Origin: an uncultured Clostridia bacterium
GTDB lineage: Bacteria; Bacillota; Clostridia; Christensenellales; Borkfalkiaceae
Reading direction: 5' to 3'
Assembly: GCA_947597925.1 (NCBI GenBank)
Contig: CANQFA010000008.1
Span: forward strand, 1,449 to 65,448
Length of the DNA stretch: 64,000 nt
This document shows positions 746-46,142 of this stretch, in pieces; position 1 is the first letter of the stretch, and every line of letters begins with the position of its first letter. A model generated the notes under the pieces. The model did not search any database. It saw only the letters and a program-made list of their open reading frames with translations, and was not told where the DNA came from. A program made the translations under genes and the position numbers.

Positions 746-2542
746 TTGAAATGCTTACAGAAGATTTTAATATCTTCTTTGAGCTTTTCCCGTGCGGCGG
801 CTTCGCGTTCGCATTTCTTCCTGTTGTTTATGATATGGAAGCGCAGTCAAGTCAGGGATTTGATCGATTCGCTTTATAACGGCTATCCTACGGGATATAT
901 CATCACATGGAAGAACCCCGATGTTCGTACGAAAGACGGCGGAATCGCCAACGGCAAAAAGGTGCTTATTGATGGGCAACAACGCATTACTGCTCTTATG
1001 GCAGCAATTGCGGGGTTGGAGGTCCTCGATCAGGATTTCAATAAAGATCGTATACGTATAGCCTTCAATCCCGTTGCGGAAGATGAGAGCAAACGCTTTG
1101 CCGTACAAGACGCGTCACACTTGAAGGATAAACGCTGGATCCCCGATATTTCTGTCGTCTTTTCCGTTGACTTTAAGCAACGCATGTTCGAAAATGAATA
1201 TTTGAAGAACAATCCGTCCGTCGATCCCGAGGAGTTATCCGAGATCATTATGAAGCTGAAAGCGATTGCGAACAGACAAATCGGCGTTATCGAACTCAAT
1301 CATAATTTGGACATCGATGAAGTAACCGAAATTTTTATACGAATCAACTCCAAAGGAACGGAATTGAGTCAATCCGATTTTGTCATGTCGAAAATGGCGG
1401 CAGATACCGCTCATGGTGGCGGATTGATGAGAAAAGCGGTCGATTATTTCTGTCATCTTGCGGTAAAACCGGAATTTTATCCTCAAATAGTACATGATGC
1501 GGAATTTCAGGCCTCACCTTACGCCGGCAAGATCAAGTGGCTCGCAAACGATTACGACGACATCTATGACCCTGATTATGGCGATATGCTTCGGGTTTCG
1601 TTCATGCACCAATTCCGCCGCGGTAAACTGGCAGATCTTGTCAGTTTACTTTCTGGTCGTGATTTCAAAACGAAGGAGTTCCGCGACGACATCGTGGAAG
1701 ATTCTTATGCGAAGCTCAGCACAGGCATCATGAATTTTATAAACCAATATAATTTTGCGCAATTTGTAATGGCAATTAAAGGCGCAGGATTTGTATCAAG
1801 CAAACTTCTCAATTCCAAAATGACGCTGGATTTTGCATACACATTATATTTAATTCTTTTACAAGACAAATCGATCCCCAATGCACAGATCAAGCGTTAT
1901 GTTCAAAAGTGGTTCGTTTTGGCAACTTTGACATCGCGTTATATCGGTTCTCCCGAAACAACCATGGATCGGGATATGCGTAGTATCGAAGAAAAGGGAT
2001 TTTTGAACTTCATGTCAGAAACGGAGGCCGCAAATCTATCGGATACGTTTTGGAACATCACGCTTCCGCAATACCTTGAAACTTCTTCGGTGAATAGCCC
2101 TGCTTTTAATGTGTTTTTGGCGGCGCAAATCAACATGAATTGCAATTCTATGTTGATGAATGGGACAAAGATTTCCGATTTAATAAGTATTTCCGGTGAC
2201 GTTCATCACATCTTTCCCCGTGCTTATCTGAAAAGTAACGGTGTAGAGTCCAAAACCAAATACAATCAGGTCGCTAATTATATTTATCTTGATACGCAAG
2301 TAAATAAGGCAATCAGTGATGACGCTCCTTGCGTATACTTCTCGAAAGCTATTCATCAATGCGAGACGGGGGAAATCGTTTTGGGAAATATTTCCGATAT
2401 CAACGTCTTTAAGAAAAATCTCGAAGAAAATTGCATTCCGGACGGAATAGAAAAAATGGCAGTTGAAAGCTACGACGATTTCCTTGTAAAAAGGCGTGGT
2501 CTTATGGCAAAACTGATTGAGCAATATTATAACAAACTCTGA
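746..2542 (+). CDS. DUF262 (ParB/Srx-like, DGQQR motif) plus C-terminal DUF1524/His-Me-finger-like nuclease domain; GmrSD/BrxU/SspE-family type IV restriction-like protein
   Basis: LIDGQQRITAL motif near the N-terminus. The C-terminus has GDVHHIFPRAYL...YNQVANYIYLDTQVN (H-H...N...N). The first 28 codons (MKCLQKILISSLSFSRAAAS...) look non-native, and the FQR part of the usual FQR..VW motif is missing. An alternative ATG is at 830. Confidence 0.75.
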   Translation: MKCLQKILISSLSFSRAAASRSHFFLLFMIWKRSQVRDLIDSLYNGYPTGYIITWKNPDVRTKDGGIANGKKVLIDGQQRITALMAAIAGLEVLDQDFNKDRIRIAFNPVAEDESKRFAVQDASHLKDKRWIPDISVVFSVDFKQRMFENEYLKNNPSVDPEELSEIIMKLKAIANRQIGVIELNHNLDIDEVTEIFIRINSKGTELSQSDFVMSKMAADTAHGGGLMRKAVDYFCHLAVKPEFYPQIVHDAEFQASPYAGKIKWLANDYDDIYDPDYGDMLRVSFMHQFRRGKLADLVSLLSGRDFKTKEFRDDIVEDSYAKLSTGIMNFINQYNFAQFVMAIKGAGFVSSKLLNSKMTLDFAYTLYLILLQDKSIPNAQIKRYVQKWFVLATLTSRYIGSPETTMDRDMRSIEEKGFLNFMSETEAANLSDTFWNITLPQYLETSSVNSPAFNVFLAAQINMNCNSMLMNGTKISDLISISGDVHHIFPRAYLKSNGVESKTKYNQVANYIYLDTQVNKAISDDAPCVYFSKAIHQCETGEIVLGNISDINVFKKNLEENCIPDGIEKMAVESYDDFLVKRRGLMAKLIEQYYNKL

Positions 2543-4332: not shown

Positions 4333-5154
4333 TCATTCTATGCCGAGACGCTCGAGTGCCTCGGCGGCGTCGGCGTCCCCGTCGTCTGCGGCGCGCTCAT
4401 ACCGGAGGATCGCCTGTTCGAGGTCTTTTTCGGTGCCGATGCCCTCTTCGTAGCATCTGCCCAGTGCGGTCTTCGCCCACAGGCAGTCGCGCTCGGCGGA
4501 GGCGCGGTAGAGCGAAAAGGCCTTCTCGGCGCTCTTCTCCGTCCCGTTGCCCGCTTCGGCGCACACGCCGAGGTAGTACAGGGCAAGCGCATCGCCCTGC
4601 GCGGCGGCCATATGGAGCCAGCGGACGGCCTCTTCGTAGTTCTGCTTGATATAACCTGTCGTCTCGTCGGACATCCCATAGCCGTGGAAATAGAGCATGC
4701 CGAGGTCATATTGTGCCAAAAGGGAGCCCCTTTCGGCGGCCTCCGCAAGCAGGGCGCGCCCCTTTTCGAGGTGTGCACGCATGCCCAGCCCCTGCGAATA
4801 GATGCAGCTGAGCGCATAGAGGGCATCGGCATGTCCGCCCTTCGAGGCCTTTTCGTACCACAGGCGGGCCTCGTTCCATTCGTCCTGCGCGATGCCGCGG
4901 TTATCCCGCTCGAAGATATTTAAGGGCGCGCGGAGATTGGGGCTTCCCGAAGGGATCTGATCGCGGATATAGGCGATCTTCCTCTCTGCCTCCCTCTCGT
5001 AAAAGGCCCCCATGAGGTACTGCGCCTCCGTCTCCCCTCCGTTTGCGCGGGAGAGCAGGGCGGCGAGCGCCCCTTCGTCTTCGGGAAGGTCGAGCTCTAC
5101 GCTCGCCTCCATGCAGAAGGGAACTTTTTCGAGGTTCAGAGTGATGGGCAGCAT
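4333..5154 (-). CDS. Sel1-like repeat (SLR/TPR) protein
   Basis: Repeated A.Y.LG.CY..G.G...D...A..WY..AA motifs. AAGGAG SD upstream of 5154. Confidence 0.8.
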   Translation of the reverse strand: MLPITLNLEKVPFCMEASVELDLPEDEGALAALLSRANGGETEAQYLMGAFYEREAERKIAYIRDQIPSGSPNLRAPLNIFERDNRGIAQDEWNEARLWYEKASKGGHADALYALSCIYSQGLGMRAHLEKGRALLAEAAERGSLLAQYDLGMLYFHGYGMSDETTGYIKQNYEEAVRWLHMAAAQGDALALYYLGVCAEAGNGTEKSAEKAFSLYRASAERDCLWAKTALGRCYEEGIGTEKDLEQAILRYERAADDGDADAAEALERLGIE

Positions 5155-5289
5155 GTTTTTTCTCCTTATGATGCGGACATGGTATGGGCATGTGCGATCA
5201 AACGCGGGATCCCTCGACTTCGCTCGGGATGACAGAAGCAGCCCGCTCGGGATGACATGAGAAGCTTCGCTCGTAATGACGTGAGAAGG

Positions 5290-5707
5290 CTCAATTTGCG
5301 CCGCGCGCTTCTTGCCCGATGAAACGATGAAGAGACAAAGGCAAGTTAAAGCGCTGACGCCAATTTCTATCGCGGATTTCTATGCCCTCAATTGAGATCC
5401 CTCGCTTCGCTCGGGATGACGTGAGAAGGCTCGGGATGACAAAAAAGGCGTCTGATAAATAGAAATCCGCGAAACTTCAATCTTCTCTGAAAAACCAAAA
5501 ACCACGCTTTTTGGTTTTTCCCTCAATTTGCGCCGCGCGCTTCTTGTCTGATGAAACGGCGAAGAGCCAAAGGCAAGTTGAAGCGCTTAAGACAGTTTCT
5601 ATCGCGGATTTCTATGCCCTCAATTGAGCTCCCTCGCTTCGCTCGGGATGACGTGAGAAGGCTCGGGATGACAAAAAAGGCTTCTAATAGATAGAAATCC
5701 GCGAAAC
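5290..5707. repeat. Two copies of a 186-bp structured intergenic repeat (5290-5475 and 5522-5707, period 232 bp), with a degenerate partial copy at about 5205-5289
   Basis: Direct reading shows the copies differ at only a handful of positions. Each contains the palindrome ctcaattgag and a 14-bp long-range inverted repeat (tcgcggatttctat / atagaaatccgcga). Each also has REP-like hairpins (atccc-N11-gggat, gctcgggatgac units). The 46-bp spacer holds an A/T-only hairpin (aaaccaaaaa-ccacgc-tttttggttt). Confidence 0.8.
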
Positions 5708-5709
5708 CC

Positions 5710-7017
5710 TCACAGCACGTATTTCTTCAGATCTCTGTCCTTCGTGATGCTCTTCAGGTGCTCCTCGACATAGGCGCGGTTGACCTCGACCGTGGTCATG
5801 GGGTAGTCGCCGCCCGCATTGTACGAGATATCTTCGAGGAGGGACTCCATCACGGTGTGCAGCCGCCGCGCGCCGATATCTTCGCTCGTCAGGTTGATCT
5901 CCTCGGCGATCTCGGCGATGGCGTCGATGGCGTCGGGCGAAAAGCGAAGGTCGATATTGTCCACGGCGAGCAGGACCGCATATTGCTGAGTGAGGGAATG
6001 CTCGGTATTCGTGAGGATATCGACAAAGTCCTGCTTCGTGAGCGAATGGAGCTCCACGGAGACGGGGAATCTTCCCTGCAGTTCGGGAATGAGGTCCTCC
6101 ACGCGCGACACGTGAAAGGCGCCCGCCGCGATAAAGAGCATGTAGTCCGTCTTCACGGGGCCGTACTTGGTCATGACCGTACTGCCCTCGACGATGGGAA
6201 GGATGTCGCGCTGGACCCCCTCGCGGGAGACATCGGCGCCCGAAGTGTTGCCCTTGCCCGCGATCTTGTCGATCTCATCGATGAAGATGATGCCGTCGTT
6301 TTCGGCGCGGCGGAGGGCCTCGTCGGTGACGGCGTCGTCATCGATGAGCTTTTCCGCTTCCTCGGCAGTGTAGAGCTTCCTGAGCTCCTTTACCGTGAGG
6401 GTGCGCTTCTTGTGCTTGGCGGGGAACATTCCCCCGAGGATGGAGCCGAGATCGATCGCGGCGCCGCCCGGGAGGAGCTCCATGCTCTTGGGCTCGTCTA
6501 AGACATCTGCCTCCAGAGAGAGATTGTCAAACTCCCCTTTTTGCAGCGATGTGAGGAGGTTCTCCTCGAAGAGTTTGCGATCGAGCTCGCCGCGGTCATT
6601 TTTCTTGACCTCGACGAGGAGCTTCAGAATGCGCTGCTCGGCGGCCGCCTTTGCCTTGGCGGAGACCTCCGCCGTCTTTTCATCCTTGACGAGGCGGATG
6701 GCGCACTCCACGAGATCGCGCACCATGCCCTCGACATCCTTGCCGACATAGCCGACTTCGGTATATTTCGTCGCCTCGACCTTGACGAAGGGCGCCTTTA
6801 CGAGCTTTGCGAGCCGCCGTGCGATCTCCGTCTTGCCGACACCCGTGGGCCCCTTCATGATGATGTTTTTGGGCGTGATCTCGTCGCGCAGTTCCTGTGA
6901 GAGCTGTGCGCGGCGATAGCGGTTCCGCAGGGCAATGGCGACCGCCTTTTTGGCCTCGTCCTGCCCGATGATGTGCTTATTGAGTTCGGTTACGATCTGT
7001 TTGGGTGAAAGATCCAT
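5710..7017 (-). CDS. hslU: ATP-dependent protease ATPase subunit HslU (ClpY)
   Basis: MDLSPKQIVTELNKHIIGQDEAKKAVAIALRNRYRR, Walker [16 protein letters not shown]. Start moved to the ATG at 7017 (GAAGGAG SD 8 nt upstream). The track start at 7044 would include the SD. Confidence 0.95.
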   Translation of the reverse strand: MDLSPKQIVTELNKHIIGQDEAKKAVAIALRNRYRRAQLSQELRDEITPKNIIMKGPTGVGKTEIARRLAKLVKAPFVKVEATKYTEVGYVGKDVEGMVRDLVECAIRLVKDEKTAEVSAKAKAAAEQRILKLLVEVKKNDRGELDRKLFEENLLTSLQKGEFDNLSLEADVLDEPKSMELLPGGAAIDLGSILGGMFPAKHKKRTLTVKELRKLYTAEEAEKLIDDDAVTDEALRRAENDGIIFIDEIDKIAGKGNTSGADVSREGVQRDILPIVEGSTVMTKYGPVKTDYMLFIAAGAFHVSRVEDLIPELQGRFPVSVELHSLTKQDFVDILTNTEHSLTQQYAVLLAVDNIDLRFSPDAIDAIAEIAEEINLTSEDIGARRLHTVMESLLEDISYNAGGDYPMTTVEVNRAYVEEHLKSITKDRDLKKYVL

Positions 7018-7103
7018 GATGATAACTCCTTCTATGTTTCCCAAGGCCTACCCTTTTTTGGGGGAACTTGGGCAAGGCCTACCCCCTCCGGGGGCTTTTT
7101 CGC

Positions 7104-7237
7104 GTCATTTCGACGAGGCACTATAATGGTGTCATTCTGAGCCTGTCGAAGAATCGCCTTAGCCTTACCAACACGTCATTTCGACGAGGCGCTATTGTGG
7201 TGTCATTCTGAGCCTGTCGAAGAATCGCCTTAGCCTT
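7104..7237. repeat. Tandem 63-bp REP-like repeat (7104-7166 and 7175-7237, period 71 bp) inside the hslV-hslU spacer
   Basis: The unit is gtcatttcgacgaggcRctatWRtggtgtcattctgagcctgtcgaagaatcgccttagcctt and contains the hairpin attct-N11-agaat. Four additional CCCCC-N3-6-GGGGGTAGG hairpins lie at about 7046-7095 and 7305-7370. Confidence 0.8.
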
Positions 7238-7377
7238 CTGTTCCCCTTTTTTCATAAGACTGCGGCGGCCCTTCGACTTCGCTCAGGGTGACATATTTAT
7301 CGTGCCCCCGGTTGGGGGTAGGGCTTTTATCGCCACATCCGTCACTCACTTCCCCCCGTCGGGGGTAGTGCTTTTTC

Positions 7378-7911
7378 TCACACGGTTTCGCAGAGAATGT
7401 GGTCGTTTGTGAAGACGCAGATCTCCGAGGCGATCTTCAGGGACTTCCGCGCGATCTCCTCGGCGGAAAAGTCGGTATTTTGCGCGAGCGCACGGGCAGC
7501 GGCGAGGGCATAATTTCCCCCGCTCCCGATGGCACAGATGCCCTCGTCGGGTTCTATGACCTCCCCCGTCCCCGAGAGAATGAGGAGAGTGTCCTTGTCC
7601 GCGGTGATCATCATGGCATCGAGCTTGCGGCCTATCTTGTCGCTTCGCCAGAGGTCCGCGAGCTCCACCGCCGAGCGCATGAGGTTGCCCGCAAACTTAT
7701 TGAGCATTCCCTCGAAGCGCTCCGAGAGGGAAAAGGCGTCGGTGACGCTCCCCGCAAAGCCGAGGATCACCTTTCCCCCGTAGATGCGGCGCACCTTGAC
7801 TGCCGTATTTTTGAAGATGACGCTCTCGCCCAAGGTGACCTGTCCGTCCCCCGCGATCGCGGTCACGCCGTTTCGCTTGACGGCGCAAATGGTCGTACCT
7901 CTGAATTCCAT
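7378..7911 (-). CDS. hslV: ATP-dependent protease subunit HslV (ClpQ)
   Basis: [15 protein letters not shown]... with an N-terminal Thr nucleophile context. AAGGAG SD. Confidence 0.95.
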
Positions 7912-7982: not shown

Positions 7983-9536
7983 CTATTTTTTGAAGCTCCT
8001 TAGGGCTTCTTGAGCTTTCTTATACCCCTGCTCGGCGGCCTTCGTATACCACTCTACCGCCTTCTTATAGTCCTGCGGAACACCTCGGCCAAATCTATAA
8101 CAAACTCCAAGGTTATATTGTGCTTCTGCATTTCCCTGCTCGGCGGCCTTCGTATACCACTCTACCGCTTTCTCATAGTCCTGTGGAACGCCCCGACCAA
8201 GGTCGTAACAATAGCCGAGATTACATTGTGCATCTGCATCTCCCTGCTCGGCGGCCTTCGTATACCACTCTACCGCTTTCTTATAGTCCTGCGGAACACC
8301 TTGGCCATTGCAGTAACAAACCCCGAGTGCTTCTTGCGCATCCGCAAATCCCTGTTTTGCAGCCTCTTCGAAAAGTTCTACCGCCTTCTCGAAATCTTTT
8401 GCTTTATAGTACCTCGTCCCCTCCTCGCAAAGCTTCTTGGGTGACTTGGACTGTACGGGCTTGGTCGGCTGCGTTTGTTTGGCGGGCTGTACGTGCTTGA
8501 TTGTCTCGGCAGGCTCAGTAGGGTTTGCGGGCTGCTCGGGTACGGGCTGCGGAGCGGGGTTGAGATGAAACTTGTGCCTTATGATCCGATCGAGGACATC
8601 TTCCTTTGTGCGGGCATATTGCAGCTCCGCGAAGAAACTCTCAAGTAATGGCTTTGCGCCCGATTTCGTCTTTCCGTTGTCGCTCGAAGGGCGATACTCC
8701 ACGCGGTGGATCTCCTTGCGGTGCTCGAGAAAGTAAGCGATCTCCTTCGAAAGGCCCTCACAGTCGAGGTCACGCGAGTTCCCGGTCGAGACAAATACCA
8801 CGCTTTGACAGGTCTTCATGGCGGTCTCGAGTATCCGCTGATAATTTTCCGCAGCGCCCCTGCCGTGGCGAATGTTGCGCTCCGCCACAAAGCAGCGCAA
8901 TTTTCCCTCCGCCTCTAAGTAGTCGACAAGTTCATGGACCTCCGCCATGTCCTTGCTCGAGTAGGCAATGAAGACCTCGCAAGTGAGATGGGCAGCGTAG
9001 ACGCCGTCATCGAGCTTTTTCGCCTCTTCCTCGACGCGGTTGAGGTAGGCTTCATATTCCCAGCCAATGAAGATGCCCGCCAGATGGACCCGCTCGAGAA
9101 AATTTTTCATGGAGCCCACGTTGCGCTTTTCGAGAGAGGCGATCATAAATTCGCAGACGGTCACAAGGAGGGTCTTGTCCTGTCCTGAGACGTCGGCCTT
9201 GTCGAGAAAGCGATTGACCGCGCCCTTGTCGCTGTCACAGGCCGCCTCGTAAAAATTCGCCATGAAGTCATTGGGGAAGTACTTCTTCACTTCCCACGCC
9301 GCCGCAGTCACCCGCTCGCTGCTGACATTTTCTGCGTGCGCCGCATTGTAGAGATTGCTGCGGGCATGGCGAAGCTTTTCCTGTTCCTTTGCGTCAAGAG
9401 CTTTGAGAAGAGTTTCCTGCGCATCGAGCGTATCTTGAACAAAATGCCCGCCGCAGTGGGTACAAGTATAGCCGTCGCGAGTCTTCACGAGTTTATCCCC
9501 GCCGCAGTTCGGGCAGAGCAAGAGTTTCAGGTCCAT
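7983..9536 (-). CDS. Zn-ribbon / helical linker / TIR domain / Pro-rich linker / Sel1-repeat protein
   Basis: N-terminus CPNCGG...CTHCGG. The TIR_2-like core is VFIAYSSKDMAEVHELVDYLEAEGKLRCFVAERNIRHGRG...VVFVSTGNS...LSKEIAYF (about 8711-8978). Three near-identical 36-aa Sel1 repeats sit at the C-terminus. AAGGAG SD. GC is lower than in neighbouring genes (31/60 at 8581-8640). Confidence 0.8.
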   Translation of the reverse strand: MDLKLLLCPNCGGDKLVKTRDGYTCTHCGGHFVQDTLDAQETLLKALDAKEQEKLRHARSNLYNAAHAENVSSERVTAAAWEVKKYFPNDFMANFYEAACDSDKGAVNRFLDKADVSGQDKTLLVTVCEFMIASLEKRNVGSMKNFLERVHLAGIFIGWEYEAYLNRVEEEAKKLDDGVYAAHLTCEVFIAYSSKDMAEVHELVDYLEAEGKLRCFVAERNIRHGRGAAENYQRILETAMKTCQSVVFVSTGNSRDLDCEGLSKEIAYFLEHRKEIHRVEYRPSSDNGKTKSGAKPLLESFFAELQYARTKEDVLDRIIRHKFHLNPAPQPVPEQPANPTEPAETIKHVQPAKQTQPTKPVQSKSPKKLCEEGTRYYKAKDFEKAVELFEEAAKQGFADAQEALGVCYCNGQGVPQDYKKAVEWYTKAAEQGDADAQCNLGYCYDLGRGVPQDYEKAVEWYTKAAEQGNAEAQYNLGVCYRFGRGVPQDYKKAVEWYTKAAEQGYKKAQEALRSFKK

Positions 9537-9571
9537 AGTACTTCTCCTTTACTTTTTTCTTTTCGAAAACT

Positions 9572-10861
9572 TCAGAGTTCGAGGGAGGCCCTATAGGACT
9601 CGATCTCGGTGAGGGCGCGCTCGGCGAGGAGGCGCCTTCTCTCCCTTTTGTCGCGCACGTCCTCGAAGCCGCCCGCGAGGATGCCGTAGTTCGCGTTCAT
9701 GGGCTGAAAGTCCCTGTTCGGCGCGGCGATATAGCGGGAGAGCGCGCCCAGCACGGTGGTCGCGGGAGGCACCACGGTCTCCTTTCCGAGCGCCCTCCTC
9801 AAGACATGGTACCCGCAGATGAGGCCTGAAGCCGCGCTCTCGACATAGCCCTCCACGCCCGTCATCTGCCCCGCGAAGAAGAGGTCGCGGCCGTCGCGCG
9901 AGGAAAAGTCGGCATTGAGACAGCGGGGAGAGTCGAGGAAGGTATTTCGGTGCATGACGCCGTAGCGCTCAAATTCGGCATGCCTGAGGGCGGGAATGAG
10001 GGAAAAGACGCGCTTTTGCTCGGAAAATTTCAGGTTGGTCTGGCAGCCGACGAGGCCGTAGCTCGTCCCCTCCGCATTTTCGCGGCGGAGCTGCAGCACG
10101 GCATACGGGCGGCGCCCCTGCCACTCGAGGCCGACGGGTTTGAAGGGGCCGAAGCGCAGGGTATCCGTACCCCGTGCCGCCATGACCTCGACGGGCATGC
10201 ATCCCTCGAAGACGTCCCCCTTCTCAAATTCGCGGAGCAGGGTACGCTCGGCGGAGGAGAGGGCGGCGACAAAGGCGAGATATTCCTCCTTCGTCATGGG
10301 GCAGTTGAGATAGTCGCCCGTCCCCTTTCCGTAGCGGTCGGAGGAAAAGGCCATCCCCATGTCCACGCTCGCGGCCGAAACGATAGGCGCCGAGGCATCG
10401 TAGAAGTGCAGGACGCCGAAGCGGCGGCGAATGTCCTCGGCAAGCGGATCGGAGGTGAGCGGGCCCGTCGCGACGATGCCGCTCGCGGGAAGTTTTTCCG
10501 CCTCCTCCTCGCAAATGCGGATATGGGGGTGGGTTTTTATGGCATCTGTCACAAATGCGGAAAATTTTTCCCTGTCCACGGCGAGGGCGCCGCCCGCGGG
10601 GACGCGCGCATATTCCGCCGCCTTCATCGTGAGAGAGCCGAGGCGCCGCATCTCCTCCTTCAGGAGACCGCAGGCATTGCCGTAGACATCGTCACTCTTC
10701 AGGGAATTGGAGCAGACGAGTTCGCAGAAGGCGGGGCTGCTGTGGGCGGGGGTAAATTTTTTTGGCTTCATCTCAAGAAGCACGACCGAAAGGTCGTGCT
10801 CCGCAAGAAAGTATGCTGCCTCACAGCCCGCAAGACCCGCCCCTATTACGACGACGCTCAC
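9572..10861 (-). CDS. trmFO: Methylenetetrahydrofolate--tRNA-(uracil-5-)-methyltransferase TrmFO (Gid)
   Basis: VVVIGAGLAGCEAAYFLA FAD-binding N-terminus and overall TrmFO-like sequence. Start set at the GTG at 10861, which overlaps the topA stop (GTGA). The track ATG at 10903 is an alternative. Confidence 0.9.
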   Translation of the reverse strand: MSVVVIGAGLAGCEAAYFLAEHDLSVVLLEMKPKKFTPAHSSPAFCELVCSNSLKSDDVYGNACGLLKEEMRRLGSLTMKAAEYARVPAGGALAVDREKFSAFVTDAIKTHPHIRICEEEAEKLPASGIVATGPLTSDPLAEDIRRRFGVLHFYDASAPIVSAASVDMGMAFSSDRYGKGTGDYLNCPMTKEEYLAFVAALSSAERTLLREFEKGDVFEGCMPVEVMAARGTDTLRFGPFKPVGLEWQGRRPYAVLQLRRENAEGTSYGLVGCQTNLKFSEQKRVFSLIPALRHAEFERYGVMHRNTFLDSPRCLNADFSSRDGRDLFFAGQMTGVEGYVESAASGLICGYHVLRRALGKETVVPPATTVLGALSRYIAAPNRDFQPMNANYGILAGGFEDVRDKRERRRLLAERALTEIESYRASLEL

Positions 10862-13065
10862 GACGCGCCGCCCTTTCCCGCACGGGGAGCCTTGTAGGCA
10901 CATTCTTTATTCGCACATTTCACGACGCCGCGGGGAGACTTGACGAGCGCGCCGCCGCACTTGGGGCATTTTTCGCCCGTGGGGACATCCCAGCTCATGA
11001 ACTTGCAGGCGGGGTATCCGCTGCACCCGTAGTAGGTCTTGCCCGTGCGGGTGCGGAGCTTCCGCGCGGGTTTCCCGCATTCGGGGCAGACCCCCTCGAG
11101 GATCTCCTCGGCGGGTTCCCCATAGGGAAGGGTGGACTTGCAAGTGGGATAGTCGGGGCAGGCGAGGAATTTTCCGTACCTTCCCGACTTGATGACCATC
11201 ATGCGGCCGCACTTGGGGCAAGGCGTGTCCGAGGTCTCCGCCTCGCCCTCACTCACGATATTGGAGCAGGCGGGATAGTTGGAGCAGGCGAGATACTTGC
11301 CGTATTTCCCCGTCTTGCGGACCATGGGATGCCCGCACTTTTCGCAGAGGATGTCCGTCATCTCGTCGCCGTCGGTGGAAGCGAAGTGCAGCTTCTCCTC
11401 AAAGGGAGGATAGAAGTCGGCGATGATGGCGTGCCAATCCTTTCCGCCCTCCTCGATCTCGTCGAGTTTGTCCTCCATGTCCGCCGTAAAGCCGACGTCC
11501 ATGATGTCGGTGAAGTACTTGACGAGCATGTCGGTGATGCGGTAGGCGATCTCCGTGGGCTTCATGTACTTCCCCTCTTTCTCCACATATTTACGCTTGG
11601 TAAGCACGGAGATGATGGAGGCGTACGTAGAGGGACGCCCGATGCCCTTGTCCTCCATGGCCTTGACGAGGGAGGCATCGGTATAGCGGACGGGCGGCTT
11701 GGTAAATTTCTGTTCGCCCGTGACGGAGAGCGCATTGAGCTCCTGCCCCTCGTCGAGGGCGGGCAGCAGGCCCTTATTCTCCTCCTCGTCCTCCTTGCGG
11801 AAGTCGGCATAGATGACAGTGAATCCCGCGAAGCGGAGGGCGCGGCCGCTCGACTTCAGGCCGTATTCGCCGCAGTCGATCTCGATCTGCATGGAGTCGT
11901 ACTGCGCCTCACTCATCTGCGAGGCGATGAAACGCTCATAGATGAGCTTGTAGACATTGTAGTGCTTGCGGTCGAGGAGCTTTTTGACGGACTCGGGCGT
12001 GCGCGCAAGGTCTATGGGACGGATGGCCTCGTGTGCATCCTGCGCGCCCTTCTTGGAGGCATAGAAATTGGGCTTGGCGGGGAGATATTCCTCGCCGTAT
12101 TTTTCCTTGATATAGTCCCGTGCCGCCGCCTGTGCATCGGCCGAGACGCGGGTGGAGTCGGTACGGATATAGGTCACGAACGCGACATGCCCCTCTCCTT
12201 CGAGGTCCATGCCCTCATAGAGGTGCTGTGCCATGAGCATGGTCTCGGGCGCGGTCATGCCGAGCTTATTGGAGGCATCCTGCTGTAGCGTGGAGGTCGT
12301 GAAGGGCGCAGGCGCATGCGACTTCGTGATGGACTTCTTGACCGAGGACACGAAATATTTCCCCGACTTCAGTGCGGCGAGCACTTCGTCCGCCGCCGCC
12401 TTATTCGTCACCTTGAACTTCTTTCCCTTCTTCTTTTCGAGGAGGGCGCGGAAGGAGGCAAACTCCTCTCCCGTGTCCCTCAGCTCCGCCGCGATGGTCC
12501 AGTATTCCTCGGGCACGAAGGCGGCGATCTCCCGCTCGCGCTCGACGACGAGGCGGAGGGCGACCGACTGCACGCGGCCCGCGGAGAGCCCGTTTTGGAT
12601 CTTGTTATTGAGCAGGGGCGAGAGCTTGTAGCCGACGAGGCGGTCCAAAACGCGCCGTGCCTGCTGGGCATCTACAAGATTATAGTTGAGCTTGCGGGGA
12701 TGGGCAAGCGCATGCAGGACGGCCTTCTGGGAGATCTCGTTGAACTCGATGCGGTGCTCGCCGTCCTCGGGAAGTCCCAATACGGTCTGCAGGTGCCACG
12801 AGATGGCCTCTCCCTCGCGGTCGGGGTCGGTCGCGAGATAGATCTTGCCCGCCTTTTTCGACTCCTCGAGAAGGCGGCGGATGGTCTCCTCCTTGCCCGG
12901 AGAAGTCTCGTAGCGGGGTTCGTAATTCCGCTCCACCGACACGCCCAGCTTCTTCTGGGGCAGGTCGCGGATATGACCGCCCGAAGCATCGACGCGGTAC
13001 TTTCCCTTGAGGTATCTTGCGATCGTCTTCGCCTTGCTCGGCGACTCCACAATGATGAGATCCAT
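10858..13065 (-). CDS. topA: DNA topoisomerase I with C-terminal Zn-ribbon repeats
   Basis: MDLIIVESPSKAKTIARYL (Toprim) and repeated CxxC...CxxC C-terminal fingers. Start at 13065 with an AAGGAAA SD. Confidence 0.95.
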   Translation of the reverse strand: MDLIIVESPSKAKTIARYLKGKYRVDASGGHIRDLPQKKLGVSVERNYEPRYETSPGKEETIRRLLEESKKAGKIYLATDPDREGEAISWHLQTVLGLPEDGEHRIEFNEISQKAVLHALAHPRKLNYNLVDAQQARRVLDRLVGYKLSPLLNNKIQNGLSAGRVQSVALRLVVEREREIAAFVPEEYWTIAAELRDTGEEFASFRALLEKKKGKKFKVTNKAAADEVLAALKSGKYFVSSVKKSITKSHAPAPFTTSTLQQDASNKLGMTAPETMLMAQHLYEGMDLEGEGHVAFVTYIRTDSTRVSADAQAAARDYIKEKYGEEYLPAKPNFYASKKGAQDAHEAIRPIDLARTPESVKKLLDRKHYNVYKLIYERFIASQMSEAQYDSMQIEIDCGEYGLKSSGRALRFAGFTVIYADFRKEDEEENKGLLPALDEGQELNALSVTGEQKFTKPPVRYTDASLVKAMEDKGIGRPSTYASIISVLTKRKYVEKEGKYMKPTEIAYRITDMLVKYFTDIMDVGFTADMEDKLDEIEEGGKDWHAIIADFYPPFEEKLHFASTDGDEMTDILCEKCGHPMVRKTGKYGKYLACSNYPACSNIVSEGEAETSDTPCPKCGRMMVIKSGRYGKFLACPDYPTCKSTLPYGEPAEEILEGVCPECGKPARKLRTRTGKTYYGCSGYPACKFMSWDVPTGEKCPKCGGALVKSPRGVVKCANKECAYKAPRAGKGGAS

Positions 13066-32621: not shown

Positions 32622-32882
32622 AGCAGACCCTTTGCGATCTGCTCTATTTTACAGTTTTCTTCCGCGAGGGACGAAGAGACGGACCCGCCGCGGGAGCACC
32701 TCTATCTCGATATCTCCCCGCGTCCCCTCCTCGCCGTCAAAGTCCCACACGAGGTTTTTTTGCGTGCTGATGCGGACATGCCTCCCCCGCATGACGTCGA
32801 CCCACCTTCTCCGCCGCCCGATCCCGAAGAGCATGAGGCGGACGAGGGAGAGATAGGAGAGAAATTTTCCGAGGGCGCCCTT
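32622..32882. repeat. Left copy (261 bp) of the duplicated 3' end plus terminator of the dagK-family gene
   Basis: Aligns with 34341-34619. I count 6 mismatches plus one 18-bp indel. Confidence 0.9.
32649..32882 (-). pseudogene. Orphan 3' fragment (last 77 codons) of the DAG-kinase-family lipid kinase gene
   Basis: Encodes KGALGKFLSYLSLVRLMLFGIGRRRRWVDVMRGRHVRISTQKNLVWDFDGEEGTRGDIEIEVLPRRVRLFVPRGRKL, almost identical to the C-terminus of 34386-35282. It retains the native hairpin (32623-32642) and T-tract. Confidence 0.85.
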
Positions 32883-32913: not shown

Positions 32914-33291
32914 ATGAGCATAGTTGGCTTTTTGCTCAAGCCGAAAAAAGAAATGGCGAAAAAGGGAACAAGATATGTAAAGGTCGGTAAATACTATCTG
33001 ACTTCCCATGCGCAGAATCGGATCGTTCAAAAGGAAAGGACTATGGATAAGGTCGATGTTTTGGACAATCTGTTTACGAAGCCCAATGCCATTACACAAG
33101 TGAAATACAATAAAAGCGGCAAACCCTCATATGATCGTGTGGGTAAGAGAATTACGACAAGTATCAATCCAACAAACAACTATGTTGCGACTTGTCGACC
33201 TGTAAGCAAAAAAGAAATTAAACAATTCGTTTTGACTGATATCGGAAAAGGAGGAAAAAGGAAATATGTTAAACAAGAGTCCAGAAAGTAA
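32914..33291 (+). CDS. Small basic protein (125 aa) with a DUF4258/RelE-superfamily-like signature; putative toxin
   Basis: AAGGAAGG SD 7 nt before the ATG at 32914. KYYLTSHAQNRIVQKERTMDKVDVLDNLFTKPNAITQ...YDRVGKRITTSINPTNNYVATCRPV matches the DUF4258 pattern x-H-A-x-x-R-x(3)-R-x-[IM]-x(3)-V-x(2)-[VL]...V-[IV]-T-x-Y/R. K/R-rich. Overlaps the next ORF by 26 nt. Confidence 0.6.
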   Translation: MSIVGFLLKPKKEMAKKGTRYVKVGKYYLTSHAQNRIVQKERTMDKVDVLDNLFTKPNAITQVKYNKSGKPSYDRVGKRITTSINPTNNYVATCRPVSKKEIKQFVLTDIGKGGKRKYVKQESRK

Positions 33292-33541
33292 ATTCACGCC
33301 GAGAGCGAAAGAGGAAGCTAAAAAACTTTTAGCCGAAATGAATATAACGGAGTTGAACGACGACAACCTTTATGAGGTCGAAGTTGAGCTTGACACAAGG
33401 GTAAGCGGATTGGTTACGATGGACGAAAGCGAACACCGGCCGATCGATCATGAGCTTTTGGAAATTTACGATACACTGACGGATATTATTCTGGAGCACG
33501 AAGAAGAGATCGATTTTCTAAATAAGCTGTTTTTGGAATAA
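33266..33541 (+). CDS. Small acidic protein, paralogue 1 (91 aa); candidate antitoxin or immunity protein
   Basis: AAAGGAGG SD. Shares F-x(2)-A-x(n)-[ND]-x-[DE]-x-L-Y-[DE] and the C-terminal [DE]-I-D-F-L-N-K-L-F-L with the next two ORFs. Confidence 0.6.
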   Translation: MLNKSPESKFTPRAKEEAKKLLAEMNITELNDDNLYEVEVELDTRVSGLVTMDESEHRPIDHELLEIYDTLTDIILEHEEEIDFLNKLFLE

Positions 33542-33580
33542 AAAGGAGCGGAACGTCATTGAAAAATTTCGGAGGGAATT

Positions 33581-33901
33581 ATGGAAACGACAAAGGTCAA
33601 ATTTTCGCAGTCGGCGGTTGATTTTATTGCGAAGTATATGATTGAAGAGTTTGGAATAACGGGCGAAATCAACGAAGATATGCTGTATGACATATATGAC
33701 ATATATGTTGCGGCAGACGACTACGATTCCTTTTTCGCGACCCGCGAGATTGACCCGCAATTCGTTTTTGACGAAGAAAAATCCAAAGCGGCAGGTGAAT
33801 TTACAGCGGAATACGACAGTGTGGTTTTAAGGGATAAGACGTTTGACTTGGATGACCTCAACCGCCGTTTGGGATTGCGGAAAACAGGCCCAAACGCATA
33901 G
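33581..33901 (+). CDS. Small acidic protein, paralogue 2 (106 aa)
   Basis: GGAGGG SD. FSQSAVDFIAKYM...INEDMLYDIYDI...DLDDLNRRLGLRKTG. Confidence 0.65.
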   Translation: METTKVKFSQSAVDFIAKYMIEEFGITGEINEDMLYDIYDIYVAADDYDSFFATREIDPQFVFDEEKSKAAGEFTAEYDSVVLRDKTFDLDDLNRRLGLRKTGPNA

Positions 33902-33957
33902 TTCCACCATTGACTTGCCAATTCGGCTTGACCGATATCGGAAAAGGAGGCAGCGAA

Positions 33958-34278
33958 ATGAAAAAAAGAAATAAAAAGACGGAACAAGAAACAACGCTCT
34001 TTCCCGTCAGTGAAGAAGCAATTGAATTTATCCGCACATACATCCTTCCCATGAAACATATCGACTATATTGACGAGGATGTATTTTATGATATTTTTGA
34101 TATTGCTGAAAGCTGGGAACTCGATATGATCGACGAAAACGGATTTGACAAGACAGATGATCCGTTTACAGAACGGAATACAATGGGAATGAATTTCGTC
34201 TCTGAAATATCGGGGCAAGATGGCGAGCCGGATCTTGATGACCTCAACCGCCGTTTGGGATTACGGAAAACAAATTAA
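33958..34278 (+). CDS. Small acidic protein, paralogue 3 (106 aa)
   Basis: AAAGGAGG SD before the ATG at 33958 (the track TTG start at 33910 is rejected). FPVSEEAIEFIRTYI...IDEDVFYDIFDI...DLDDLNRRLGLRKTN. Confidence 0.65.
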   Translation: MKKRNKKTEQETTLFPVSEEAIEFIRTYILPMKHIDYIDEDVFYDIFDIAESWELDMIDENGFDKTDDPFTERNTMGMNFVSEISGQDGEPDLDDLNRRLGLRKTN

Positions 34279-34340: not shown

Positions 34341-34619
34341 AGCAGACCCTTTGCGATCTGCTCTATTTTACAGTTTTCTTCCGCTTTACAGTTTTCTTCC
34401 GCGAGGGACGAAGAGACGGACCCGCCGCGGAAGCACCTCTATCTCGATATCTCCCCGCGTCCCCTCCTCGCCGTCAAAGTCCCACACGAGGTTTTTTTGT
34501 GTGCTGATGCGGACATGCCTCCCTCGCATGACATCGACCCGCCTTCTCCGCCGCCCGATCCCGAAGAGCATGAGGCGGACGAGGGAGAGATAGGATAGAA
34601 ATTTTCCGAGGGCGCCCTT
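34341..34619. repeat. Right copy (279 bp) of the duplicated dagK 3' end. It includes an internal 18-bp tandem duplication (34367-34384 / 34385-34402) spanning the stop codon
   Basis: Direct alignment with 32622-32882. Confidence 0.9.
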
Positions 34620-43109: not shown

Positions 43110-46100
43110 TCAGAAATCCAGATCGGACTTCTCGACGATCGCAGTCTTGATGAGTCCTTCGGCGAGGAGCTCGTCTTCGCTGCGATAAGCGAACTGTGCC
43201 GCATAGTCCACCTGCTCGATCTCCTCCTTGACGGCGCCGAGACGCTCCATGAGGAGCTCCACGAGACGAAGAGTGCGCTTGAGGGCGACATGGCTCTTGA
43301 CCTTCATCATGAGCGGGGTGCGCTCGTACATCTTGGTGTCGCCCGCGTACTTCTGGTGATACACGGTGTCGGGGAATTCGTCGGGATTGAGGGCGAGATA
43401 GACGCACAGGGTCTTGCCGCGCACGCCGATCTTGGCGATCGTCTCGTTGTTATAGGCGAAGCGGTCATTGGACCAGTTGACCTGCGAGGTGATGTTCGTG
43501 TAGGACAGGAAGGCGTTCTTGAGGGCGCTGTAGGTCTCCTTTACGCTCTCCTCACTCTCGATGATCTTGGCGGTGAAGCTTCTCTTATAGCGGGTCGTGA
43601 GTTCGGCCTCTGCGACGGGCTCGCCGACTTCGGGTTCTTCGGCGACGGCCTCGGCGGGAGCGATCTCCTCGACGACTTCGGCGGGTGCCTCCTCAGCGGC
43701 CTCCTCGACGGGAGCGGGCTCTTCGGCAGGCGCTTCCTCCTCGACGGGAGCGGGCTCTTCGGCCGCGGTGAGTTCCTCTTCTACAGGGGCGGGTGCGGGC
43801 TCTTCGGCGGGTGCGGGCTCCTCGGTCTCAAGCTCGGCAAGGCGCTGTTCGAGGGCGTGCAGTCTCTCCTCGAGCGCGGCCTGCTCGGCGGCCTGCTCGG
43901 CAGCCTTCTCTTCGGCGATGCGGGCAGCCTCGGCCTCTTCTTCGGCCTTCTTTGCAGCTTCCTCTTCGGCGGCGATGCGGGCTGCCTCTTCTTCGGCGGC
44001 CTTCTGTGCGGCCTCCTCTTCCTCGGCCTTCTTCTGCTCTTCGGCGATCTCGGCGAGCTTCTGCTCTACGAGACGATTGACTCTCTCCTCTTCGGCGATA
44101 CGGGCAGCTTCGGCCTCTTCCTCTGCCTTGCGGGCGGCCTCCTCTTCGGCGGCCTTCTGCGCGGCTTCTTCTTCGGCGGCAATGCGAGCTGCCTCTTCCT
44201 CGGCCGCTTTCTGTGCGGCTTCCTCTTCGGCGGCCTTTCTCTGCTCTTCGGCGATCTCTGCGAGCTTCTGCTCTACGAGACGATTGACTCTCTCTTCTTC
44301 GGCGATGCGGGCGGCTTCGGCCTCCTCTTCTGCCTTACGGGCGGCCTCTTCCTCGGCGGCGATACGGGCAGCTTCGGCCTCCTCCTCTGCCTTCTTCTGC
44401 TCTTCGGCGGCCTTGCGTCTCTCCTCTACGAGGTCGGCGACTCTGACCGCAAAGGCTTCCTTGGCGATTTCGTCCTCTTCGGCCTTCTTCGCAGCCTCCT
44501 CTTCGGCGGCGATGCGGGCGGCTTCGGCTTCCTCTTCGGCGATGCGGGCGGCTTCGGCCTCCTCTTCTGCCTTACGGGCGGCTTCTTCCTCCTCGGCGAT
44601 GCGCGCGGCCTCGGCTTCTTCTGCCTTGCGGGCAGCCTCTTCTTCGGCGGCCTTCGCGGCAGCTTCCTTTTCGGCGGCCTTCTTCGCCTCTTCGGCGGCG
44701 AGGCGCTTCTCTTCCACGATCTCGGCTACCTTCTCCGCGAGGGTCTGATAGTCGATCTCTTCCTTCTCTTCGACGGGACGTGCCGCCATCTCTTCGGCGA
44801 GCTTCACGGCCTCGGCCTCTTCGTCGGCCTTGCGCTTCTCGTCCACGATCTCGGCGACGCGCTGAGCGAGGCCCTCGTAGTCGAAGGTATCCTCTTCCTC
44901 GACGGGCTCCTCGGCTGCGGTCTCCTCGACTTCCGCCTCGGCGCATGCGGCGCACTTTGCGGTGAGGAACTCCACCACCTTCTCGGCGATGGCATCCACG
45001 CCCTCTTCATCGACGCTCAGGTCGAAGCGACGCTCCATGGCTGCTGCCACGGAATCGGTGATCTCGGGCACAACTTCGCGGACATCGTCGGCGACATGGA
45101 GCATCTCGACGACCGTGTCGGCAACTTCCGCCGCCGTGAGCTCTTCGTTTGCCTTCGGCAATTTCTCGAGAATGATCTCGGCAGCTTCCTGCGCGATCTC
45201 TCTGTAATCGGTGATCTCGTTGATGGCCTTTGCGAGCTTGTCGTAGTCGATGGGATCGACGGGAACGGGCTCCTCGGCAACTTCCTCTGCGGTCTCTTCC
45301 ACGACTTCCTCGGCAGCTTCCTCGGCGACGGGCTCCTCTGCAACTTCCTCGGTGGCCTCCTCGGCGGGCTCGGTCTCGACCTCCTCCACCGTGAGTTCGT
45401 CGAGCTTGGCGCTGATGGCGTCGATCTTCTCGTCGAGGGTCCCGTTGAGCTCTTCCTTGAAGGACTCGAGGCGCTCCTCGTACTGCTTGCCCTGCGCCTC
45501 GAGGCTGTCGGTGACCGCCGCCTCGTGTGCGGAGAGCTTCTCGTCGATGATCTGCTCGATCTCGTGGGTATCCACGGGCTCGCTTGCATTGGCCTTGATG
45601 AGGGTGGACTGCTCGTCGAGGATGTCGAGAACTTCCTGACGGAAGTCGGCGAACTCCTTCCTGAGGTCGTCCTTGCTCTCGCCCTTGGCATCGTAGTGAA
45701 GGTCTTCGAGATCCTCAATGGCCTCCACGATCTCCTCGGTGCGCTGTTCGAAGCGCTTGGAGAGACGGCCTTCGAGGCCGGCAAAGCCCTCGCCGCTCTT
45801 CAGGTCGCGGCGGACGACGGCGAGCCCTTCCACGAGCTGCGTCCTGACAAAGTGCGCAAGCTGGTTGGTACGGTCCTTGACCACGCCGGTGAGGGCCTCT
45901 TTCAGTCCCTTGTTTTCCGCCTTGAGCGACTCAACCTCTTTCTTGAGCGCCTCGAAGTTGGCGCCGAACTGCTTCGAGAGACACTTCACTTCGAAGATGG
46001 CCTCGCTGAGCGCCTCTTTCAGGTCGCCGTTTGCCGCCTCCTGCTTCTTCAGCTCCGCGCTCACGGACGTCTTGAGTTCCGCGATGTTTTTGTTGACATC

Positions 46101-46142
46101 AATGCGGATGCCGCTAAGGATCTGTAGATCTTTCTCGTTCAT
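43110..46142 (-). CDS. 1010-aa acidic E/A/K-rich coiled-coil repeat protein with a conserved globular C-terminal domain of unknown function
   Basis: Long ORF. Internal 69-aa (207-bp) tandem repeats (RVNRLVEQKLAEIAEEQ[RK]KA...AEAARIAEEE). The C-terminal domain is RSFTAKIIESEESVKETYSALKNAFLSY...GKTLCVYLALNPDEF... Confidence 0.8.
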   Translation of the reverse strand: MNEKDLQILSGIRIDVNKNIAELKTSVSAELKKQEAANGDLKEALSEAIFEVKCLSKQFGANFEALKKEVESLKAENKGLKEALTGVVKDRTNQLAHFVRTQLVEGLAVVRRDLKSGEGFAGLEGRLSKRFEQRTEEIVEAIEDLEDLHYDAKGESKDDLRKEFADFRQEVLDILDEQSTLIKANASEPVDTHEIEQIIDEKLSAHEAAVTDSLEAQGKQYEERLESFKEELNGTLDEKIDAISAKLDELTVEEVETEPAEEATEEVAEEPVAEEAAEEVVEETAEEVAEEPVPVDPIDYDKLAKAINEITDYREIAQEAAEIILEKLPKANEELTAAEVADTVVEMLHVADDVREVVPEITDSVAAAMERRFDLSVDEEGVDAIAEKVVEFLTAKCAACAEAEVEETAAEEPVEEEDTFDYEGLAQRVAEIVDEKRKADEEAEAVKLAEEMAARPVEEKEEIDYQTLAEKVAEIVEEKRLAAEEAKKAAEKEAAAKAAEEEAARKAEEAEAARIAEEEEAARKAEEEAEAARIAEEEAEAARIAAEEEAAKKAEEDEIAKEAFAVRVADLVEERRKAAEEQKKAEEEAEAARIAAEEEAARKAEEEAEAARIAEEERVNRLVEQKLAEIAEEQRKAAEEEAAQKAAEEEAARIAAEEEAAQKAAEEEAARKAEEEAEAARIAEEERVNRLVEQKLAEIAEEQKKAEEEEAAQKAAEEEAARIAAEEEAAKKAEEEAEAARIAEEKAAEQAAEQAALEERLHALEQRLAELETEEPAPAEEPAPAPVEEELTAAEEPAPVEEEAPAEEPAPVEEAAEEAPAEVVEEIAPAEAVAEEPEVGEPVAEAELTTRYKRSFTAKIIESEESVKETYSALKNAFLSYTNITSQVNWSNDRFAYNNETIAKIGVRGKTLCVYLALNPDEFPDTVYHQKYAGDTKMYERTPLMMKVKSHVALKRTLRLVELLMERLGAVKEEIEQVDYAAQFAYRSEDELLAEGLIKTAIVEKSDLDF

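Follow-up and report, generated by a model that had tools for sequence, protein, structure and literature searches.

A Zinc-Ribbon/TIR/Sel1 Protein Between trmFO and hslV Belongs to a Large TIR Family with Interchangeable Tails in Gut Firmicutes

Introduction

What is a TIR protein doing in the middle of a housekeeping gene block? TIR domains are shared by the innate immune systems of animals and plants and by those of bacteria. The bacterial TIR systems known so far either comprise several genes (Thoeris, CBASS or Pycsar effectors, and STAND proteins) or, rarely, consist of a single gene carried by a mobile element (SpbK), and the fusion of TIR domains to repeats is an already known theme. 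We analyzed a 64,000-nucleotide stretch of DNA from an uncultured Clostridia bacterium (contig CANQFA010000008.1; hereafter the window) in which an open reading frame (ORF) on the reverse strand, 7983..9536 (−), encodes a protein of 517 amino acids (aa) followed by a stop codon. The gene, here called X, combines a zinc ribbon, a TIR domain, and Sel1 repeats and lies between trmFO and hslV. A preliminary description of the locus treated X as an unusual protein with a possible anti-phage connection. We find that X is no isolated case and belongs to a large family in gut Firmicutes, in which a conserved head consisting of a zinc ribbon, a helical domain, and a TIR domain is joined to interchangeable repeat tails.

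Results

A Conserved TIR Head with Many Tails

A word-indexed homologue search returned only 4 relatives of X, even when the query was a profile of 64 sequences, and the size of the family was taken from a pattern scan of genomes and an exhaustive HMMER search. The pattern scan, covering one genome per GTDB species, identified 65 family loci. The HMMER search covered 1.84 billion representative proteins and yielded 1888 matches at E ≤ 1e-3, 779 at E ≤ 1e-10, and 489 at E ≤ 1e-30; when clustered at 50% identity, the family thus numbers 489 clusters or more with the same N-terminal module. All of the best 150 matches carried the full module at the N terminus, in proteins ranging from 286 to 2675 aa. 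The ORF in the window matched the family hidden Markov model at 373 bits (E 4e-113). Apart from the four cysteines of the zinc ribbon, the recurrent motifs of the family are P-D-D-F-x-A-N-F-Y in the helical domain and, further on, R-D-V-F-x-A-Y-S-S-K-D, C-F-x-A-x-R-N-L-x-H-G, and S-x-N-S-R-x3-C-D-A-x3-E.

Family members occur in uncultured Clostridia (labelled Christensenella, Oscillospiraceae, and Acutalibacteraceae) and Bacilli (Erysipelotrichaceae and Acholeplasmatales) of the animal gut. One carrier, Anaeroplasma bactoclasticum ATCC 27112 (L057, NZ_QXEV01000005.1), is a cultured and publicly available strain and thus offers an experimental handle. Its family member is 913 aa long by the ORF call, the start of which is possibly wrong, and the match spans aa 57–318 of the module.

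We extracted 74 distinct full-length family ORFs and scanned the region C-terminal to the module in 71. The most common tails were BspA-type LRR_5 repeats (43/71) and Sel1 repeats (12/71); TPR tails were found in several of the 71, DUF6273 and the C-terminal domain of ribosomal protein L7/L12 in 5 each, a second TIR_2 domain in 3, and MORN and TM2 in 2 each. The L7/L12 type is a translation-factor-binding domain and an odd tail for a TIR protein; one family member also matches Ribosomal_L10. In a minority of members, the TIR module is followed by a K/R-rich stretch, one credible transmembrane (TM) helix, and LRR_5 repeats (L029 8001–11630, L034 1325–6175, L052 7980–10889, L036 7980–12758, and L035 8001–10511). 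Because of this order of segments, the sequences of the TM-LRR members imply a cytoplasmic TIR and an extracellular leucine-rich repeat (LRR) region, a topology resembling that of Toll-like receptors.

Many metagenome-assembled genomes (MAGs) contain from two to seven copies of the module, numbers that are lower bounds, and the copies are partly arranged in tandem, with three in L014 and four in L064. Stand-alone Sel1 genes or genes for a zinc ribbon with Sel1 repeats adjoin family members in L011, L013, L020, L023, L024, and L048. We did not find a description of the head module, the architecture, or the family in the searchable literature, and the family is apparently not previously described.

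Five Parts of the Protein

X consists of five parts: a C4 zinc ribbon, an eight-helix TPR-like domain, the TIR domain, a Pro/Gln-rich linker, and a Sel1 tail. The zinc ribbon (aa 5–31; 9444..9524 (−)) is formed by C8, C11, C25, and C28, which are invariant across 64 relatives; it gave weak Pfam and NCBIfam zinc-ribbon matches, the Pfam match lying at aa 5–34, as well as profile matches to the ribbons of L37Ae and RpoM, and the AlphaFold2 (AF2) models place β-hairpins at aa 16–25. It is followed by a domain of about 150 aa (aa 34–180; 8997..9437 (−)) that AF2 predicts as eight helices and that carries the conserved motif P88-x-D90-F-x-A93-N-F95-Y. The AF2 model of aa 1–185 reached a predicted local distance difference test score (pLDDT) of 89.7 and a predicted template modelling score (pTM) of 0.85. 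No Pfam family matched the helical domain, and the N-terminal domain alone had no significant structural neighbour in PDB and BFVD; its likeness to TPR-type repeats is coarse only (TM-score 0.5–0.6, E above 0.3).

The TIR domain (aa 186–325; 8562..8981 (−)), recognized by Pfam TIR_2, AF2, Foldseek, and hhalign, leads into a low-complexity linker rich in Pro, Gln, and Thr (aa 326–364; 8445..8561 (−)) that is evident from the translation and not alignable between relatives. The Sel1 tail (aa 365–517; 7986..8444 (−)) was matched by Pfam Sel1 in three stretches (E 5.7e-50) and consists of four 36-aa units in register (aa 365–508), three of them canonical and one degenerate, followed by a C-terminal cap; in the underlying DNA, a 108-bp unit is repeated in tandem 2.8 times with 83% identity at 8026–8327. 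We found neither a signal peptide nor a TM segment in X, whose zinc ribbon already begins at residue 8. Likewise, Pfam and AF2 revealed no P-loop NTPase between the TIR and the repeats, the protein outside the TIR being all-helical or of low complexity, and no further copy of the zinc-ribbon/helical/TIR module was found within the window.

Much of this agrees with the preliminary description. The motifs quoted there (CPNCGG...CTHCGG, FIAYSSKD, LRCFVAERNIRHG, VVFVSTGNS, and SKEI) all occur in the translation, and the fusion of zinc ribbon, TIR, and Sel1 that it proposed is borne out by Pfam Sel1, by TIR_2 above its cut-off, and by the weak zinc-ribbon models. Of its four parts, each is present, but the count must be raised to five as the helical domain at aa 34–180 was overlooked; similarly, its three Sel1 repeats correspond to the canonical units, with the degenerate unit and the cap having been missed.

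An Intact TIR Fold and a Putative Catalytic Glutamate

Pfam TIR_2 (PF13676) matched X at aa 188–271 with a score of 30.4 bits, slightly above the curated cut-off of 28, and the scanned relatives scored mostly 28–37 bits, with L008 at 27.8. AF2 predicts β-strands at aa 188–192 (βA), 215–219 (βB), 245–249 (βC), 277–281 (βD), and 306–308 (βE), and α-helices at aa 197–210 (αA), 228–242 (αB), 260–271 (αC), 294–302 (αD), and 311–322 (αE). By this model, which was built on only 5 sequences and has a pLDDT of ~60–80 in the TIR, the domain is complete, with five parallel strands alternating with five helices in a flavodoxin-like fold. Foldseek matched the TIR of X to the TIR domains of IL-18Rbeta and MAL at a TM-score of 0.62, along with chains of SARM1 and TIR-1. 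The Foldseek search with the whole module had B12-binding domains of the CarH type at its top; we rejected these, the root-mean-square deviation being ~11 Å and the resemblance that of a generic helical bundle plus a flavodoxin-like domain. The best match by sequence was PDB 8BTN, for which the literature gave no identification.

Ten residues are invariant in the alignment of 64 relatives, C8, C11, G12, C25, C28, F189, Y192, D196, S254, and E265, and X of the window keeps all of them. E265 (codon 8742..8744 (−)), present in 64/64 family members, lies in the SKEI motif inside the predicted helix αC. For comparison with an established NADase, we used the TIR of human SARM1, the sequence of which was checked against PDB and is identical to residues 563–700, E642 being position 80. 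In the global and greedy modes of hhalign, the TIR of X aligned with that of SARM1 over 126 columns, with E265 placed on E642 (SKEI versus HKEI) and C259 on C635; helix αC was spanned only by the global or low-mact alignments. Given the alignment, the invariance, and the position in the helix, taken together, we regard E265 as the putative catalytic Glu of an NADase-type TIR, in agreement with the preliminary description, which had considered the NADase glutamate retained.

A Probable Single Insertion with Later Tail Replacement

Using the proteins that neighbour X in the window as tblastn queries, we found the order trmFO–X–hslV only in the closest genomes, namely four rabbit-gut MAGs (L001/L010, L007, L008, and L009) and a further contig, L072. 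In the four MAGs, identity to the window was 95–97% for hslV, about 80% for topA, 70–75% for trmFO, 60–66% for the X module, and 53–57% for dprA. No other family member exceeds 41% identity or lies in this slot, and the slot copies thus form one clade. A single ancestral insertion, followed by vertical descent within a narrow clade and later replacement of the tail, accounts best for the position. While the window copy carries three Sel1 units, the slot copies of L007 and L009 have six each and that of L008 has nine; in P0003, the tail is a second TIR_2 domain (E 2.7e-18), and in P0002, it is a 4Fe-4S (Fer4) dicluster domain. In L007, an extra 636-aa protein of 16 Sel1 units (5342–7249) lies between trmFO and the X orthologue.

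The same protein sequence as X, with 100% identity, was found on four independent metagenome contigs. On the metagenome contig L006 (2–862), a trmFO fragment 92% identical to that of the window adjoins an X protein 100% identical to ours, a mismatch that could stem from recombination or from a chimeric assembly.

Locus, Expression Signals, and Composition

The ORF list and Pfam bear out the placement, given in the preliminary description, of a 517-aa X between trmFO and hslV in a block dprA–topA–trmFO–X–hslV–hslU. The full order, all on the reverse strand, is comM–dprA–topA–trmFO–X–hslV–hslU–Sel1b–hisS–trx, where comM is Mg-chelatase-like, Sel1b encodes a stand-alone Sel1 protein, and trx encodes thioredoxin. 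The upstream neighbour trmFO (9572..10903 (−); Pfam GIDA, E 7e-87) is separated from X by a gap of 35 nt and the downstream neighbour hslV (7378..7911 (−); Pfam Proteasome) by one of 71 nt. A ribosome-binding site, AAAGGAG, lies 7 nt 5′ of the ATG of X (9544..9550 (−)). As the terminator scan of the coding strand from trmFO through X to hslV gave no terminator-like site, X is likely cotranscribed with both genes. Farther downstream, a terminator-like hairpin (5715–5699) lies at the stop codon of hslU (5710..7017 (−); Pfam AAA_2). The second Sel1 protein pointed out in the preliminary description, Sel1b, is confirmed by Pfam (4333..5154 (−); 273 aa; Sel1 E 1.4e-24) and has a counterpart in L001 and none in L009.

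The composition of X differs from that of its surroundings. The G+C content is 0.542 for the whole gene (GC) and 0.641 at third codon positions (GC3), in comparison with 0.60–0.64 and 0.77–0.87, respectively, in the neighbouring genes, and both values are lowest in the Sel1 tail (0.503 each). The GC3 of X is below that of its neighbours also in all four relatives measured (L001 and L007–L009). The lower GC noted in the preliminary description thus holds, and its hand count of 31/60 at 8581–8640 is exact. That description had also named what would speak against its proposal, and the outcome goes against it only in part: the position is indeed conserved in the six closest genomes, but the composition of X is not host-like in L001 and L007–L009 and no misalignment of the putative catalytic residue was seen, so that the proposal as a whole is not refuted.

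The spacing of hslV and hslU varies. In the window, hslV and hslU are separated by 360 nt (7018–7377), with 1.9 copies of a 71-nt unit of 95% identity at 7103–7237; the two genes directly adjoin in L001 and L008 and lie 0.8–0.9 kb apart in L007 and L009. The gap in L009 (8054–8958) contains a 123-aa ORF for a DUF559/Vsr-like endonuclease between ~174-nt repeats, and the spacer has the appearance of a site where small repeat elements insert preferentially. The spacer from hslU to Sel1b (5155–5709; 555 nt, GC ~0.48) holds 1.8 copies of a 232-nt unit of 92% identity and additional repeats of 20–23 nt. Rfam found no RNA elements in the window. Elsewhere, a 235-nt direct repeat of 97% identity (32648–32882 and 34385–34619) surrounds ~1.5 kb with small ORFs of low GC3 (32914–34059) and may mark a small inserted element, and a 1010-aa ORF (43113–46142 (−)) has extensive internal repeats with units of 80–207 nt (families D1, D2, D5, and D6).

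Partners and Defence Genes

We searched the 53 ORFs of the window with the PADLOC models and found no ThsA, SIR2, or SLOG protein; the matches were to housekeeping-prone models, such as ShosA, which we attribute to dprA, and to a GmrSD-like gene. The latter, of the type IV restriction class, is located just past the thioredoxin gene (746–2542 (+)) and has a GC of 0.42 and a GC3 of 0.47. In L001, a WYL/RNase_T protein and unknowns occupy the same position, which indicates a variable island ~5 kb from X. After clustering 417 neighbour ORFs across loci, we found no partner gene kept throughout the family, so that X appears self-contained. A subgroup of loci outside the window (L011, L020, L023, L024, and L048) shares neighbours encoding a coiled-coil protein, a zinc-ribbon-Sel1 protein, and a helix-turn-helix protein. 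A reading of X as a polymorphic toxin with an immunity gene was rejected, both a secretion signal and a conserved downstream gene being lacking.

Discussion

A Candidate Receptor-Type NADase

The analysis shows a five-part architecture with an intact TIR fold and an invariant Glu, a large family that swaps its tails and has expanded into paralogues, and, at this locus, narrow synteny and an atypical composition. The reading that we favour, and to which we give a little less than an even chance, is that X is a cytoplasmic, stand-alone, ligand-gated NADase of receptor type and a Sel1-tailed member of its family. We propose a mechanism modelled on that of SpbK, SARM1, and further NADases of the TIR type. 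The Sel1 tail would bind a protein ligand as the trigger, and binding would relieve autoinhibition or cluster X, possibly with the help of the conserved N-terminal domain, the zinc-ribbon/TPR-like head serving as a common regulatory or assembly element. TIR domains could then stack head to tail to create composite active sites around E265, where NAD+ would be cleaved, leading to NAD+ depletion or to a signal of the ADP-ribose type and thereby to changed or arrested cell physiology. The trigger might be a phage protein, as in abortive-infection defence, or some other cellular or environmental cue.

Several of our results weigh against this reading. The hhalign probability for aligning E265 with E642 is only ~29%, and the HMMER and default hhalign alignments to TIR domains in PDB and to SARM1 end before helix αC. 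X of the window deviates at 4/38 near-invariant sites (R186C, L222I, D260E, and A261G), in comparison with a family median of 0 and 0–1 among the slot orthologues, and since two of the four changes sit just before E265, the activity of this copy may be altered or weakened. The module of X diverges about as fast as dprA, which does not suggest that the head has been evolving in an exceptional arms race, and X apparently shares its transcript with housekeeping genes. The sole defence-related hit for X is a weak, partial PADLOC match to ThsB1 (aa 185–280, E 3.5e-5, 21 bits), which is lost at a threshold of E 1e-6. A random sample of 150 neighbours from 50 family loci consisted mostly of housekeeping genes (penicillin-binding proteins, ABC transporters, SRP54, MreB, and biosynthetic enzymes) and showed only scattered matches to defence models and no enrichment of the kind seen in defence islands, and the module was absent from 50,697 phage records, 72,556 plasmids, and 2.9 million IMG/VR contigs.

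How far do other explanations account for the same observations? The last points bear most directly on the proposal that X is a single-gene, abortive-infection TIR resembling SpbK, with a Sel1 tail that recognizes a phage protein and a TIR that depletes NAD+. SpbK provides the precedent (PMC12847820), and the retained putative catalytic Glu, the variable, sensor-like tails that are swapped at a single locus, the expansion into paralogues and tandem arrays, the atypical composition of X, and the GmrSD-like restriction gene and variable island ~5 kb away all fit such a role. An anti-phage role is plausible for a modular, expanded, and fast-shuffling family, but the genomic context gives it no support: X fits no PADLOC system, lies outside defence islands among mainly housekeeping neighbours, is not found in the phage, plasmid, and IMG/VR collections, and is kept in stable synteny within a housekeeping block in six genomes. 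For the anti-phage connection raised in the preliminary description, we found a weak, partial ThsB match and no partner, island, or mobile carriage, and we consider the proposal a minority possibility with a real chance. A role in nonimmune sensing, in which the LRR, Sel1, or other tails would detect cellular or extracellular cues and the TIR would make an NAD-derived messenger or scaffold partners, is in keeping with the housekeeping neighbourhoods and with the TM-LRR members. The Toll-like-receptor-like topology of the TM members, the confinement of the family to host-associated gut bacteria, and a conserved head suggestive of a common downstream interaction would agree with nonimmune signalling receptors; against them, neither a messenger receptor nor a conserved partner was found across the loci, and we know of no bacterial TIR protein with a proven nonimmune signalling role. 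We hold this explanation to be improbable.

Two further proposals fare considerably worse. The short gaps of 35 and 71 nt on a coding strand free of terminator-like sites, the retention of the slot in six genomes, and the frequent use of Sel1 and TPR domains as protein-binding adaptors could point to X as a substrate adaptor or regulator of the HslVU protease. However, at the other family loci, which number more than 55, neither hslV nor hslU lies within ~8 kb, and the tails found in the slot (Sel1, TIR, and Fer4) are not homologous and ill-suited to a fixed adaptor role, which makes the link extremely unlikely; the hslV–hslU spacing itself also varies. Very unlikely, too, is a host-directed effector of the Tcp type that interferes with TLR/MyD88 and uses its Sel1 or LRR tails as eukaryote-like interaction modules. 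The occurrence of the family only in animal-gut bacteria, the frequent involvement of Sel1 and BspA-LRR domains in host interactions, and the animal TIRs as the closest solved structures by fold are in its favour, but X has no export signal, its zinc ribbon starting at residue 8, and the TIR of the TM members lies on the K/R-rich, presumably cytoplasmic side. Recurrent secretion-system genes were not found near the family loci either.

The preferred reading of X as a ligand-gated NADase may be extended to the family as a whole. It might represent a new class of receptor-like TIR proteins, with a fixed head and exchangeable tails but without an NTPase, including TM-LRR forms, present in multiple copies outside defence islands and mobile elements, and dedicated to pattern recognition or signalling through NAD+ cleavage; we regard this extension as rather doubtful. 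Whatever its role, the family places one TIR head on many binding domains in hundreds of sequence clusters from uncultured animal-gut Clostridia and Bacilli, with no NTPase switch and no defence-island context. The stable slot between trmFO and hslVU, with its replacement of tails, provides a clean natural experiment in which domains are swapped at a single locus.

Comparison with Known TIR Systems

Among known systems, SpbK, the single-gene abortive-infection NADase YddK of the Bacillus subtilis element ICEBs1, is the natural reference. It consists of a helical domain and a TIR and is activated once the phage portal clusters its TIR domains (PMC12847820). Like X, it stands alone without a partner gene and has an all-helical noncatalytic domain followed by a TIR with a Glu (E192 in SpbK and the putative E265 in X). 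The family profile matched SpbK weakly (PDB 9phb, E 0.15), and no sequence homology was detectable between the two helical domains. X differs from SpbK in its zinc ribbon, in having an eight-helix domain in place of a four-helix bundle, and in the additional C-terminal repeat tail. Whereas the N-terminal domain is the sensor in SpbK, it is conserved in the family of X and the tail is the variable part; SpbK lies on a mobile element, whereas X resides in a housekeeping block and was not found on mobile genetic elements. ThsB of Thoeris is likewise a bacterial TIR protein with a conserved Glu, but it has neither the zinc-ribbon/helical head nor the repeat tails, and the ThsA effector (SIR2 or Macro-SLOG) of that system was found neither in the window nor beside the relatives of X.

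The animal NADases SARM1 and TIR-1 resemble X in joining a helical-repeat regulatory region to a TIR. X lacks their SAM domains, however, is unrelated to them in its helical domain and in the order of its domains, and has a βC–αC loop 6 residues shorter than that of SARM1. The Tcp proteins (TcpB/BtpA and TcpC) share with X a bacterial TIR and an occurrence in host-associated bacteria, and PDB 4lzp was among the weak profile matches; X differs in its N-terminal region and its multidomain build, and evidence for secretion was not found for it.

The combination of TIR domains, repeat sensors, and paralogue arrays seen in the family of X recurs in plant TNLs, in bacterial STAND proteins of the Avs and bNACHT types, and in Toll-like receptors. 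TNL and STAND proteins have a P-loop NTPase between effector and repeats, which X lacks. The family of X is thus set apart from Thoeris by the absence of ThsA, from STAND proteins by that of the NTPase, and from SpbK by that of homology and of a location on mobile elements. If its TIR is active, the family would be a natural library of sensor–effector fusions with mappable ligands. X of the window has neither the TM helix nor the LRR of Toll-like receptors; its TM-LRR relatives have LRR, TM helix, and TIR, although with the TIR N-terminal to the TM helix, and would come closer than other bacterial proteins to the LRR/TM/TIR layout of these receptors.

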